A DNA stretch of 64,000 nucleotides from Thermoplasmata archaeon. Its GTDB lineage: Archaea > Thermoplasmatota > SW-10-69-26 > JACQPN01 > JAJPHT01. Under the pieces are notes generated by a model. That model saw nothing but the letters and a program-made list of their open reading frames with translations, was not told where the DNA came from and searched no databases. Of the stretch, positions 43,419-46,842 are shown one piece after another. The stretch's first letter is position 1; each line of letters starts with the position of its first letter. Where the stretch lies: NCBI GenBank assembly GCA_034667685.1, contig JAXDQU010000012.1, positions 1 through 64,000 on the forward strand, given 5' to 3'. The position numbers and the translations under genes are program-made.

Positions 43419-44579
<1,161 letters not shown>

Positions 44580-44628
44580 GCGCCGGGCATCCCGCGCGCC
44601 GGGCATGAAGGCATCCTTGAGCGCGCGT

Positions 44629-44752
44629 CGTTCACGTTCACGTTCTCGTTCACGGAAATCGTTGCGCGTTCACGTTCCACGTTTCTCGTGCAACCTGCAA
44701 CGACAACGTGAACGTGCAACGTTGTCCGTGAACGAGAACGTGAACGTGAACG
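44629..44752. repeat. Hexamer palindrome, same family as 41640-41765
   Basis: Shared core tcgtgcaacStgcaacgacaacgtgaacgtg in the same orientation. Confidence 0.92.
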
Positions 44753-44819
44753 GTTCTTGTCCAAGTTGAGATGGTGCGTACAACAAGCAGCAAAGAGGAC
44801 CGCCTGGGAGCGCGGTTGC

Positions 44820-44933
44820 ATGCACCCCGACATCCCCCGCAGCAACCTGGCCGGCTTCGCGCAGACCACCGCGGTCCTGGCGTTCCTGGCGAACAAGAAC
44901 CTCGCCGTGGGCGGCGGCTACGCCCTCCGCTGA
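44820..44933 (+). CDS. Small ORF, 37 aa (MHPDIPRSNLAGFAQTTAVLAFLANKNLAVGGGYALR)
   Basis: All sense codons end in G/C; GGAG upstream. Confidence 0.5.
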   Translation: MHPDIPRSNLAGFAQTTAVLAFLANKNLAVGGGYALR

Positions 44934-44939
44934 GGGCGC

Positions 44940-45810
44940 CGACGAACCCGCAGGTTCGTTGAGCGTCGTCCGCTGAATTCCCCTTCACGATTCTGGTTGG
45001 TCACTCCGGCTCGCGCGCTGGTTCGCTCCGCGCGCGGGTCGTTCCTCCGGACTGCATCCCCGGAGGACAGGTTCGCAAGATTGGTCCCAGCCCCCGCGCG
45101 CGTTCGCTCGCGCTCGGGGGAATCAGAACCGCAAGAAGAGTGCGGAGCTCGGAGGCGCGTGGCGTCGCCGCGTGATCCGGCCGGTCCGTGCCTCTTGCGA
45201 GGCCGCCCGCTTTCCCGCGACACGGGGGCGCTACGGGCGTTCTCCCGGGGCGTGGGGCCCCGAGGCGGCCGGCCGCGACCCCGTTGCCGGGGCCGGGACC
45301 TTCACCGATCGCGATGGGCTGGCCAGCCCGCGTGCGATCCCCCGCCGTCCACGTCGTGCACGTGGCGGGGCCGCCGGGGCTTGCGCCGCCGGCGTGGCGC
45401 CACGACCCCGTCAGGCCGTGGCTGGGCAGCAGACTCCACACGTCCAGCTGCATGGCGCAGGCGCGTGGCGCGCTTGCGCTTCGGTCCGATCTTCGGCCCC
45501 GAGGCCGCGGGTGGTGTCCGGGCTGGTTCGGGGCGTTGCGGCGGATCGTCCTGCGTGTCCTTGCGGACGCGCGGGCGAGGATGCCCGTGAGGGCGTCCCG
45601 GTCCCGGGGGCGACCCGGAGCCGCGGCCGTCGCTTTCGCTTCGGCCGTGCTGGGCGGTCTCGTGAGCTCATGTCGCGCAAGGCGACGACGAGTGTCGCGA
45701 CCGTCACGATCCACGGCCGCGCGCGCCGGATCCCTTGCGGGTCCCGTCTCGCGCAGCCGCGCGTTCTGCGCCTCCAAGGCGCATGCCTCACTACACGCGC
45801 GCCATGCAAA
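44940..45810. ncRNA. Candidate large structured non-coding RNA/ssDNA element of unknown class
   Basis: No credible ORF; more than ten short stems with tetraloop-sized loops; strand unresolved. Confidence 0.5.
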
Positions 45811-45989
45811 TCGTTGTCGGCGGCAGGTTCTAAATAAGTCGAAACCGCGCAGCAAGGCTTGATAGCACGGGCGCTTCGCCTAAAGGGCAAAGCCTCATGC
45901 ATCGTGTGTTTCCGCTGCGCGGTTTGCATCCTCGGCATCCAAAGTTGCAGAAGTTGTAGCGTTTCTTCCGATGGAGCCGGTGCATTGGG

Positions 45990-46427
45990 TCATGACGCTT
46001 CGAGGATGCGCTTCAGTTGCGCGAGATCCTTCTGGTTGGCGCGGCGCATCGCGGCCGCCATCATGGGCGCCGCGACCTTGGAGAAGCCGCGCGGCTCGCC
46101 GCGGTTGCGCAGGCTCATCCGCGTCGCGCCCGGGCCGGCATCGGACCAGGCGTACGTCGTCTCCATCGGGAAGGGCCCCTCCGCGGTGCGCATCACGAGG
46201 CGCTCGCCCGGCACGAGCTCCACGACCTCGTAGGTGTAGGCCAGCGTACGGCCCAGGAAGCGCGCCTCGAACGCAACGCGCGATCCGACGCGCAGCGGGC
46301 GCTCGGTCTCCCACGTCGCGCCGCGGATGTTGGCGTACCACGTGGGCGCGTTCGACGGATCGGCGGCGTACGCGGCGACCGCCTCGCGCGGCCGCGCGAT
46401 CACCGTCTCGGTGAGCACGTCGACCAT
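45990..46427 (-). CDS. SRPBCC (polyketide cyclase-like) protein
   Basis: IARPREAVAAYAADPSNAPTWY, GPFPMETTY, NQKDLAQLK. Confidence 0.88.
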   Translation of the reverse strand: MVDVLTETVIARPREAVAAYAADPSNAPTWYANIRGATWETERPLRVGSRVAFEARFLGRTLAYTYEVVELVPGERLVMRTAEGPFPMETTYAWSDAGPGATRMSLRNRGEPRGFSKVAAPMMAAAMRRANQKDLAQLKRILEAS

Positions 46428-46434
46428 GCGCGCC

Positions 46435-46842
46435 TCAGATCTTCGCCAGCTCGCGGTGCGTCTTCACGACGCTCTCCACCGCGCTGCGCCCCACGTCCAC
46501 GCGCGCCTCGGCCTGCAGGCGCGACATGCCGGGCCCGGTGATGGCGAGGCCGACCGGCTTCTCGAACTCGACGGCGAGGTCCGCGGCCTTGCGGCTGCTG
46601 TGCCCCGCGACGATCTGGTCGTGCCCCGTCTCGCCCTGGATGACGCAGCCGATGACGACGACGGCATCCACGTCCTTGCGCTTCAGGAGCTTCTTGATCG
46701 GAAGGCTGGTGTCGAACACGCCGGCCGTCCACACGACGGGGCCGTTCTCCTCACCGAGGAACTCGGCGTGCGCCTTGGCGCGCTCCAGCATCCGGCTCGT
46801 GATATCATAGTTGAACTCGGCGACCACGTATGCGATCCTCAT
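46435..46842 (-). CDS. ribH: 6,7-dimethyl-8-ribityllumazine synthase
   Basis: VAEFNYDIT, GVFD, GCVIQGETGHD, GLAITGPG. Confidence 0.95.
   Translation of the reverse strand: MRIAYVVAEFNYDITSRMLERAKAHAEFLGEENGPVVWTAGVFDTSLPIKKLLKRKDVDAVVVIGCVIQGETGHDQIVAGHSSRKAADLAVEFEKPVGLAITGPGMSRLQAEARVDVGRSAVESVVKTHRELAKI

Follow-up and report, generated by a model that had tools for sequence, protein, structure and literature searches.

The minus strand of positions 45151-45775 very probably carries the gene for an undescribed non-coding RNA, stable, highly structured and about 620 nt long, in an uncultivated soil archaeon. Coordinates refer to the window, the 64,000-nt stretch at positions 1 to 64,000 of contig JAXDQU010000012.1 (Thermoplasmata archaeon, assembly GCA_034667685.1). 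The mature RNA, about 622-625 nt long and bounded by the two strands of a terminal helix, is delimited by RNA-library contigs, homology, covariation and fold z-scores. A sequence-only reading had placed one structured RNA of about 870 nt at 44940-45810. A large structured RNA is indeed present, spanning approximately 45151-45775, but what had been read as a single RNA of 870 nt consists of two structured elements, one on each strand.

Extent, expression and strand

Third-position G+C is flat across 44607-45989, with no phase above the others; in real genes of this 72% G+C genome it is 0.95-1.00. Five overlapping six-frame ORFs from the same region have no Pfam or NCBIfam matches, in agreement with the earlier view that it holds no credible gene. 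An RNA-library contig 97% identical to the large RNA differs from it by six single-base indels. Flat codon-position G+C, blank protein-family searches and single-base indels between near-identical copies together exclude a protein gene or pseudogene at 45151-45775. Spurious long ORFs do run across the large-RNA region, which has a G+C content of about 76%. The stretch had also been described as not tandem-repetitive, and 44940-45810 is in fact single-copy in the host genome (G000) except for the part within 44768-45045; a second copy of 45046-45990 is absent from that genome, where the only similarity is one 28-nt chance match. Homology to other copies of the RNA starts at 45151 and extends to about 45790-45800.

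Transcripts from soil appear to correspond to this block. Among the 24 runs listed as containing part of the stretch, 17 are RNA libraries, from at least eight studies. Three RNA runs (X4, X7 and X9) were aligned to the stretch, and their large-RNA contigs are all confined to 45151-45772: a 620-nt contig matches 45151-45770 (X4), a 592-nt contig matches 45151-45726 (X9) and an adapter-flanked insert matches 45447-45772 (X7). Outside the block, where absence of cover is uninformative, X4 has no contig, X7 has short low-identity pieces near 46024-46071 and 45100-45119, and X9 contigs additionally cover a small ORF and a repeat. Assembled contigs are blind to strand, level and true ends, and RNA libraries may carry over DNA, but presence in so many of them suggests that the large RNA is abundant and stable.

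Several signals support a minus-strand polarity. The GNRA loops previously noted on that strand are real, and of 86 strand-neutral tetraloop hairpins 29 have a GNRA loop when read on the sense strand, against 3 when read on the antisense strand. The sense strand also has the more extreme fold z-scores, and a TATA-like box upstream and a T-rich tract downstream have the corresponding orientation. The count of G-U versus A-C combinations (58 versus 35) leans mildly toward the sense strand, although this count is biased, and RNAalifold energies are nearly equal (-365.6 sense, -370.1 antisense). If the X7 library was dUTP-stranded, the adapters flank its insert in the orientation expected of a minus-strand RNA.

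The first ~190 nt of the stretch originally proposed (44940-45128) belong to a separate structured element on the plus strand. This element has three hairpins (44977-45128), lies downstream of the small ORF and contains the conserved sequence GGUUCGCAAGAUYGGUCCCAG. A three-sequence alignment with the copies in a related genome (G003) gives 42 pairs, 9 of them compensatory, and the closing helix (44995-45002/45079-45087) can form G-U pairs on the plus strand only. In G003 the element abuts an SRPBCC gene, without a large RNA between them. The long-range pair ttctggtt/aatcagaa, once assigned to the large RNA, exists and is part of this plus-strand element instead. The sequence-only reading had met G-U pairs on the plus strand together with GNRA loops on the minus strand and left the polarity of its single RNA undecided; both signals are real, and they occur together because two RNAs on opposite strands adjoin. 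One long G+C-rich intergenic region can conceal two unrelated structured RNAs in this way.

The small ORF (44821-44933, plus strand) encodes 37 amino acids and belongs to a multi-copy small-protein family recognized from paralogs, orthologs and two 37-aa database matches. A hand count finds G or C in the third position of 37 of its 38 codons, stop included, and an RNA-library contig from X9 covers 44776-44933. Comparison with paralogs delineates a 43-nt hairpin insertion at 44934-44976, which ends in a second copy of CCGCTGA and is missing from the paralog on contig C89; a DNA contig from run X3 has 15 other letters in place of 44923-44982. A long palindromic GTTCACG-type repeat, REP-/MITE-like and outside the RNA, occupies 44633-44748, where the sequence matches itself on both strands, and at least 11 further contigs of the same genome hold matches to it.

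Ends, fold and covariation

Upstream of the large RNA, the minus strand has a TATA-like box, TTATTTAG (45837-45830), preceded by a BRE-like TTCGAC (45843-45838), and both are kept in the homologs. The AT-rich, TATA-like patch reported earlier at 45829-45838 is thus a conserved feature, which reads TTCGAC-TTATTTAG on the minus strand. In all five genome copies a distance of 57-59 nt, counted by eye, separates TTCGNNTTATT from GGAGGCGCA downstream of it. Used as a search pattern, this arrangement retrieves three loci in genome contigs, all of them true, and five loci in metagenome contigs, of which four are true and the fifth is a false positive in a protein gene; viral contigs have 0 matches to the promoter-plus-5'-end pattern. 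Judged from its sequence and position, the TATA/BRE-like box is the putative promoter of the large RNA.

An archaeal promoter typically has its TATA/BRE elements about 25 nt ahead of the point where transcription starts, and an oligo-T terminator typically ends the transcript. The leader of about 30-35 nt predicted at 45776-45808 (minus strand) has this length because the start was placed by the usual archaeal TATA-to-start spacing; it would be removed from the mature RNA. In the alignment fold, a leader hairpin (45782-45768) pairs the leader sequence GCGCCU with the 5' strand of the terminal helix. At the other end, a terminator-like hairpin (45145-45129) is followed by a T-rich tract, together at 45121-45145 on the minus strand, and a T-rich tract after the terminal helix is also seen by eye in the aligned homologs. 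We propose that the large RNA has a promoter of its own, the TATA/BRE box some 60 nt upstream, that the transcript would end at the hairpin and T-tract, and that the leader of about 30 nt and a 3' trailer would be trimmed back to the terminal helix.

The terminal helix, P1, is formed by GGAGGCGC at the 5' end (45768-45775) and GCGCCUCC at the 3' end (45151-45158), both on the minus strand. Its eight pairs are invariant in all seven sequences of the structure set, and the single-sequence minimum free energy (MFE) fold closes with the same helix. The X4 and X9 contigs, from two studies, both end at 45151, which is a weak hint that this is a real 3' end. The unpaired tail after P1 reads UCCA in four of seven copies by eye, and the base following UCC is variable. 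On a bolder view, tRNA-processing enzymes might act on this acceptor-like helix and its 3' UCC(A) tail.

The large RNA folds better than dinucleotide-shuffled sequences (20 shuffles for each strand), a comparison that the sequence-only reading had named as a check. For 44940-45810 the z-scores are -6.81 on the minus strand and -3.14 on the plus strand; for 45151-45775 they are -5.55 (minus, sense) and -3.15 (plus), and the homolog in genome G002 gives -6.27 sense and -2.84 antisense. Local windows of 150 nt have modest z-scores of about -1 to -3.

Covariation among homologs, the other check named, points the same way. The structure set comprises seven sequences from one genus, two of them tandem copies, and its consensus has 147 pairs, 65 of them with compensatory changes on both sides. 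Pairing is possible in 88.1% of 1004 cells, compared with 35.3-41.6% when partners are slid, and the slid controls reach a covariation score of at most 0.089 where the alignment itself scores 0.311, a contrast inflated by the prediction of the consensus from the same alignment. None of 500 shuffles matches the observed pairing and covariation values. Differences between RNA contigs and the window are independent of the structure set, and an incomplete comparison by hand found four compensatory pairs (45318/45327, 45402/45419, 45407/45414 and 45734/45739) as well as differences that break predicted pairs (45405/45416, 45496 and 45497).

Individual hairpins on the minus strand illustrate this pattern. 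The hairpin at 45726-45745 carries a GCAA loop (45738-45735) that is GCAA or GCGA in six of seven sequences and UCGC in G002; its closing pair changes from C-G to G-C in run X4 (by hand), and it sits inside a 12-bp helix (helix 2; 45761-45750/45723-45712) in which five of eight pairs are compensatory. The GCAA-capped hairpin at 45557-45568 (helix 9) has six of eight pairs compensatory, and its loop becomes GAAA in X7 and X9, so that GNRA is kept (by hand). The 10-bp hairpin at 45399-45422 (helix 18) has six of seven pairs compensatory, and the independent X9 contig changes A-U to G-C at 45419/45402 and C-G to U-A at 45414/45407, with one disruptive change at 45416/45405 (by hand). A palindromic hairpin, GGGCUGGCCAGCCC (45316-45329), has a conserved core UGGCCA in the alignment, and both X4 and X9 contigs change its pair 45318/45327 from G-C to C-G. 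Inspection by eye also picked out a conserved 7-nt loop, GUGUGRW, as a candidate anticodon-loop-like element, and a candidate K-turn or C-box-like motif.

Homologs, genomic context and known RNA families

Full-length homologs occur in four of the five genomes of the genus (the host and G001, G002 and G003) and on two metagenome contigs. G001 has two tandem copies. The five genome copies are 592-700 nt long, and the homologs are about 60% identical. A plain DNA search of 61 relatives mainly retrieved the small-ORF module, with RNA homologs as weak partial matches that required relaxed BLAST settings. Covariance-model searches, limited in sensitivity because a first look gave several thousand candidates per genome and only about 150 of these were scored, did not find the RNA in G004 of the same genus, and found nothing beyond the genus in the family (9 genomes), order (15) and class (21), with 13 other genera covered. 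A search with filters off in the ribH neighbourhoods of 13 other genomes gave nothing convincing (best match 17.5 bits, E 0.006). As judged from these sequences, the large RNA would be either narrowly distributed or too fast in divergence for detection.

Three loci, in G000, G001 and contig L050, have the RNA downstream of ribH. An aminotransferase gene follows the RNA in G000 and G001, where ribH, the SRPBCC gene and the aminotransferase gene all share its orientation. In G003 the RNA is at a different location, adjoining a prolyl-tRNA synthetase gene, and both G003 and L050 have a different gene on its 3' side. At the loci examined the RNA has no integrase, transposase or tRNA as a neighbour. 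The ribH/aminotransferase context suggests vertical inheritance.

The Infernal/Rfam scan advised at the outset identified no known family for the large RNA. None of the 4227 covariance models of Rfam 15 reaches its gathering score anywhere in the window, and at E<=5 there are 0 matches inside 45151-45775; the sole matches in the region at E<=5 are chance-level miRNA models on the palindrome at 44631-44750. On five homolog loci there are 0 relevant matches, and one chance match lies outside the RNA. No description of such an RNA was found in the literature, which included PMC12918454 and bioRxiv 10.64898/2026.10.21.760802, although supplementary files may list candidate RNAs.

Individual candidates were considered in turn. 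The host is archaeal, and its archaeal RNase P and SRP RNAs map to other contigs: the genome's only match to RF00373 is at C52:11169-11539 (86.2 bits, above cut-off), and RF01857 matches at C8:42602-42914 (154.7 bits). As neither matches at the large-RNA locus, both are rejected as its identity. At that locus group I, group II and RNase P models have no match at E<=5, consistent with the earlier failure to see RNase P, SRP or intron hallmarks. A group II intron is further contradicted by ORFs without Pfam matches and by a 5' end that reads GGAGGCGCA and not GUGYG. The 6S RNA model (RF00013) has no match anywhere in the host genome, and 6S RNA is rejected on this basis and on the multi-branched consensus and MFE folds of about 620 nt. 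ARAGORN finds 0 genes at the locus and no tRNA in 44000-46500. The tmRNA model (RF00023) has five below-cut-off matches, all on other contigs and the three best 75-76 nt long; with RF00023 blank at the locus, no T-arm before the 3' strand (by eye) and no apparent tag frame, tmRNA is likewise rejected. OLE RNA has a model in Rfam and is linked to oap genes. It is rejected here by the lack of an Rfam match, the archaeal host and neighbours that are ribH, SRPBCC and aminotransferase genes, with no oapA-like gene. ROOL and GOLLD are rejected by the lack of an Rfam match, the lack of a tRNA in 44000-46500 and the 0 pattern matches in viral contigs.

Possible roles and comparison with known RNAs

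Large structured RNAs beyond ribosomal RNA are very rare, and RNase P, group I and group II introns, OLE, GOLLD and ROOL each gave unusual biochemistry or architecture. To our knowledge, the orphan large-RNA classes are nearly all bacterial. The RNA described here is longer than 500 nt, non-coding, built of covarying helices and represented by RNA-library contigs, features of "ornate" large non-coding RNAs, which are a descriptive class and not a homology group. The initial proposal of an unclassified large non-coding RNA in the size class of OLE, ROOL and GOLLD has therefore held up, given the lack of an Rfam match, the covariation and the contigs on a discrete block of about 620 nt. It seems to represent a new and narrowly distributed class of RNA.

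The features of the large RNA suggest neither cis-regulation nor a guide function. By analogy, we tentatively favour a trans-acting architectural RNA, whose multi-domain fold and GNRA contacts would scaffold an RNP or a higher-order RNA particle. Bacterial OLE, ROOL and GOLLD are thought to work as such RNAs. A role for an L7Ae-type protein is conceivable. A bolder and somewhat more doubtful version would make it the founding member of a new archaeal class of ornate large RNAs, one of the most abundant transcripts of a widespread lineage of soil Thermoplasmatota, which would form an RNP or an RNA-only particle with a function new to archaeal biology; we know of no earlier case in the OLE/ROOL/GOLLD size class outside Bacteria.

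It is unlikely, though worth weighing, that the RNA is instead a decoy that sequesters RNA polymerase or a translational regulator, in the manner of 6S, Ms1 or CsrB. The abundance and stability suggested by many RNA libraries would suit such a role, as would the predicted promoter and terminator of its own, and the invariant terminal helix and GUGUGRW loop could be protein sites (by eye). However, the 6S model is blank in the genome, and the branched multi-domain fold has neither a rod with a central bubble nor repeated short binding motifs. We know of no decoy RNA of the 6S/Ms1/CsrB type in archaea.

We consider a large ribozyme or self-processing RNA, possibly one that matures its own ends, to be rather improbable. 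Group I, group II and RNase P models are blank at E<=5 and the RNase P RNA is encoded elsewhere; there are no exon-like flanks, reverse-transcriptase ORF or GUGYG 5' end, and the narrow distribution speaks against an essential catalyst, even though size, many GNRA loops and long-range helices are typical of large ribozymes and the ends seem to be trimmed to defined positions.

That the RNA belongs to a mobile element, a provirus or a defence island, and is carried rather than serving the host, is more improbable again. GOLLD and ROOL often occur in prophages, and the different location in G003 beside the prolyl-tRNA synthetase gene, the tandem duplication in G001, the patchy distribution with none in G004, and the repeats and small insertion nearby would all fit such an origin. 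Against it, G000 has just one copy of the RNA, three loci place it downstream of ribH and two of these also upstream of the aminotransferase gene, no integrase, transposase or tRNA adjoins it, and its pattern has 0 matches in viral contigs. The structured mobile element that the sequence-only reading had offered as a second option finds no support in copy number, in the ribH context or in the viral contigs.

Only the orientation shared with ribH, SRPBCC and the aminotransferase gene in G000 and G001 favours a cis-acting leader or long 5' UTR of the aminotransferase gene, or a read-through tail of ribH/SRPBCC, which is highly improbable: RNA contigs stop at 45151, still about 545 nt short of where the aminotransferase gene begins, the interval holds a terminator-like site, a small convergent gene and a repeat, the downstream gene differs in G003 and L050, and the RNA has its own conserved TATA box. 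A decayed gene or G+C-rich spacer with incidental hairpins, to which the long spurious ORFs and the modest 150-nt z-scores might point, has almost no probability in view of the 65 compensatory pairs among 147, the GNRA strand bias, the conserved ends and promoter, the coincidence of RNA contigs with the block, and the lack of periodicity or protein matches.

As an archaeal large RNA that is apparently highly expressed across many soil studies, the RNA would be a new case for structure and function work, and it would be usable as a marker transcript of an uncultivated soil lineage. Like archaeal RNase P and SRP RNAs it is stable and structured, its 5' and 3' ends pair and its termini appear to be trimmed, but it is about twice as long and was found in a single genus, and both housekeeping RNAs are elsewhere in the genome. 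With the bacterial, RNA-polymerase-binding 6S and Ms1 RNAs it shares apparent abundance, stability, a probable trans-acting mode and ends that form a closing helix, although it is three to four times longer and branched rather than rod-like, and the 6S model is blank. As in bacterial tmRNA, an acceptor-like helix joins the two ends and an unpaired tail comes after it; unlike tmRNA, the large RNA lacks a T-arm before the 3' strand and an apparent tag frame, and the base after UCC varies.

The closest parallels are in the ornate class. OLE (~610 nt, Firmicutes) is similar in length, in its many conserved helices, in apparent abundance, in having its own transcription unit and in a function that is not readable from its neighbours; the large RNA differs in being archaeal, with about 76% G+C, no model match and no oapA-like neighbour. 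ROOL and GOLLD (~580 and ~800 nt, bacteria and phages) are reported to form RNA-only multimeric cages (bioRxiv 10.1101/2024.12.08.627333). The large RNA has no match to their models, is not beside tRNAs and has 0 pattern matches in viral contigs, but it shares with them the size class, an ornate branched fold, many tetraloops and non-coding status.

Composition of the gene-free gap

The ~1.38 kb between an aminotransferase gene (43419-44606, minus strand) and a gene for an SRPBCC/polyketide-cyclase-like protein (45990-46427, minus strand) do not look like coding sequence. Real genes in the window, where G+C averages 71.8%, have third-position G+C of 0.95-1.00 and second positions near 0.45-0.5, and this signature appears in no phase of the gap, where total G+C climbs to 0.76-0.79 in the middle. 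Long ORFs cross several frames, with no match in Pfam or NCBIfam. The fold of 44940-45810, compared with 20 dinucleotide shuffles, gives z-scores of -6.81 on the minus strand and -3.14 on the plus strand, with local 150-nt windows reaching merely -1 to -3. A scan with Rfam 15 detected no family at gathering score in the whole window, and none at E<=5 in 45151-45775. Given the lack of a coding signature, of domain matches and of Rfam matches, and a fold beyond that of shuffles, the observation of a stem-rich stretch without a credible gene is real and exceeds chance. The sequence-only reading had taken 44940-45810 for a single RNA of ~870 nt. The stretch is a composite of distinct parts, and the large structured non-coding RNA spans about 45151-45775.

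Next to the aminotransferase gene is a near-perfect palindrome of 116 nt (44633-44748) with GTTCACG/CGTGAAC as its unit. Besides matching itself on both strands, it has matches on at least 11 further contigs in the source genome (e.g. C12:41642-41763, C24, C87, C34, C1 and C85), and it appears to be a REP- or MITE-like element of the host archaeon. It is followed by a small plus-strand ORF of 37 aa (44821-44933), with G or C at 37 of 38 third positions (hand count, stop included). This ORF is one of a multi-copy family whose 37-aa members start MHPD, with two other copies in the source genome (C89:36981-37207 and C11:64819-64985), at least five in G003, another genome of genus g1 (L009, L015, L022 and L025; several at contig ends), and two each in its relatives G001 (L010) and G004 (L016). 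Two unnamed 37-aa proteins predicted by gene callers elsewhere also match it, and one family member is covered by a contig from an RNA library (run X9). Conserved upstream of the family ORFs are TAGAAC, about 15 nt, TGAGA and then a conserved 5' UTR; downstream are structured regions with hairpin loops reading GGUUCGCUCC.

Directly after the stop codon of the small ORF is a 43-nt hairpin insertion (44934-44976), which the C89 paralog lacks and which is replaced in a contig of DNA run X3. The second CCGCTGA copy that ends this hairpin looks like a target-site duplication. Beyond it, an alignment with two G003 copies defines a conserved structured element on the plus strand (44977-45128), with 42 pairs, of which 9 are compensatory. 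Its closing helix has many G-U pairs and therefore can form on the plus strand only. In G003 the element adjoins the SRPBCC stop codon, and the remaining ~860 nt present in the source genome at this point are missing there. Several features noticed from the sequence are thus real but belong to this element and not to the large RNA, namely the stems at 45043-45067 and 45091-45120 and the long-range pair ttctggtt/aatcagaa. This separate element likewise explains why G-U pairs had been noticed on the plus strand alone, an observation that had left polarity ambiguous.

Ends, strand and structure of the large RNA

Parts of 44600-46100 occur in 24 listed public runs, 17 of which are soil or root RNA libraries, representing at least eight studies and each containing 14-25% of the sampled words. 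Contigs were compared with the region for three RNA runs (three studies) and one DNA run, and in all three RNA runs they coincide with one block. X4 has a 620-nt contig entirely within 45151-45770 (10 substitutions, 6 indels), X9 a 592-nt contig over 45151-45726, and X7 a 357-nt contig (depth 64.8) whose insert, 45447-45772, lies between sequencing adapters. Contig ends fall at 45151 in two studies and at 45770/45772 in two studies, and homology among the copies begins at 45151. On the minus strand, complementary octamers occur at the block ends, GGAGGCGC at 45775-45768 and GCGCCUCC at 45158-45151. The evidence for expression is good but indirect, as contigs do not prove strand, level or ends, and DNA carry-over is possible in RNA libraries.

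Several observations point to the minus strand. A strand-neutral scan identified 86 hairpins that combine a 4-nt loop with four or more Watson-Crick pairs; the loop is GNRA in 29 of them when read on the minus strand and in 3 when read on the plus strand, bearing out the minus-strand GNRA loops noticed earlier. The fold z-score is -5.55 for sense and -3.15 for antisense in the source genome, and -6.27 and -2.84 in G002. A TATA-like box lies upstream on the minus strand, and a hairpin and T-rich tract downstream. The X7 adapter orientation agrees with a minus-strand RNA, provided that the library was dUTP-stranded. RNAalifold energy and the G-U/A-C count did not tell the strands apart.

The alignment of seven RNAs (801 columns) yields 147 pairs in RNAalifold, with both-side changes at 65, compared with 11-25 in controls slid by 1-3 columns. 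Of 1004 cells, 88.1% are paired (35.3-41.6% in the slid controls), the covariation score is 0.311 (at most 0.089), and none of 500 shuffles attained the observed structure values. Because the counts were made on the very alignment that had yielded the structure, and among related sequences, these figures overstate the case, but the margin is still large. The terminal helix is invariant, with eight pairs identical in all seven sequences, and the fold is divided into domains by several long-range helices and contains numerous hairpins. Comparison by hand of RNA-contig differences with the structure is a partly independent test. It revealed four compensatory pairs (45318/45327 in two runs, 45402/45419, 45407/45414 and 45734/45739), two single changes that create or abolish a G-U pair, a GCAA loop changed to GAAA in two runs, and three changes that disrupt predicted pairs (45405/45416, 45496 and 45497). 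The covariation evidence is solid, albeit from a small sample of sequences.

All seven RNAs have a conserved 7-nt hairpin loop, GUGUGRW (about 45436-45442; alignment columns 375-381). Around it, G002 and G003 have GUGAUGA or GUGAUGG, similar to a box C or K-turn motif. The loop could be a candidate L7Ae site or an anticodon-loop-like element.

Host, distribution and genomic context

RNase P RNA and SRP RNA of the archaeal type are both encoded in the source genome, with matches of 86.2 bits (above cut-off) and 154.7 bits, respectively. The host is therefore archaeal, and both RNAs are accounted for elsewhere in the genome. In an archaeal host, the TATA-like patch noticed upstream is plausibly genuine, a TATA box accompanied by a BRE-like element (45830-45843, minus strand). 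All copies share TTCGNNTTATT, located 57-59 nt upstream of GGAGGCGCA. The public record of L043, the same DNA as G003:C49, is labelled a Proteobacteria MAG, and its sister genomes Thermoplasmatota archaeon; the RNase P and SRP RNAs of the source genome suggest that the Proteobacteria label is wrong.

BLAST with relaxed settings recovered full-length relatives as two tandem copies in G001 and one in G003, and a covariance model, followed by BLAST confirmation, one in G002. Among the five genome copies, length ranges from 592 to 700 nt. The combined TTCGNNTTATT and GGAGGCGCA pattern recovered the three known genome loci among 185,579 species genomes. In metagenome contigs it matched L046 and L050, which are new copies, as well as two duplicates of known matches and one false positive. 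Model searches scored about 150 first-look candidates per genome, so that sensitivity was limited. They detected the RNA in four genomes, whether the 9 of the family, the 15 of the order or the 21 of the class were searched, and all four (G000, the source genome, and G001-G003) belong to genus g1. It was not found in G004, which is 88% complete and has ribH at a contig end, and ribH neighbourhoods of 13 other genomes gave no convincing match with filters off. The known distribution is narrow.

In G001, each tandem copy (L017, about 1087-1786 and 2247-2945; G001:C25) has a TATA-like box to itself. An insertion of ~45 nt in the 3' domain of both copies forms two extra GNRA-capped hairpins.

Upstream of the large RNA is ribH (lumazine synthase) in G000, G001 and L050, and downstream of it is the aminotransferase gene in G000 and G001; in G003 the RNA neighbours a prolyl-tRNA synthetase gene. 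The sequence-only reading had also considered a structured mobile element. The conserved ribH/aminotransferase context, the single copy in G000, the absence of a nearby tRNA there and the lack of a pattern match in viral contigs favour a vertically inherited host gene instead. Protein searches with ribH showed one or two in-frame TGA codons in the matched frames of genomes G003, G009, G010, G001 and G006, which may simply come from extending the open frame upstream.

Proposed working and relation to known RNAs

The large RNA is a non-coding, conserved and highly structured unit present in RNA libraries. We infer that it is transcribed from its own promoter and ends at its own terminator. A leader of ~30-35 nt, which can fold into a hairpin together with the terminal helix's 5' strand, would be removed, and the 3' trailer would be cut back to the terminal helix, leaving a short UCC tail; by eye, an A follows UCC in four of seven genomic copies. 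Neighbouring genes and database matches give no pointer to function. The size, the branched GNRA-rich fold and the presence in many RNA libraries lead us to propose, tentatively, a stable trans-acting architectural RNA that might scaffold a ribonucleoprotein or higher-order RNA particle. Rival explanations are a regulator that sequesters protein, a ribozyme, a passenger of a mobile element and a cis-leader.

The large RNA qualified as a member in none of the tests run against known RNAs, and literature searches turned up no description of it. The feature is real and represents a new RNA family, as the proposal of an unclassified large ncRNA had anticipated. In size class and ornateness it is akin to OLE, ROOL and GOLLD and, like RNase P RNA and SRP RNA, it would be a stable archaeal RNA with paired ends.
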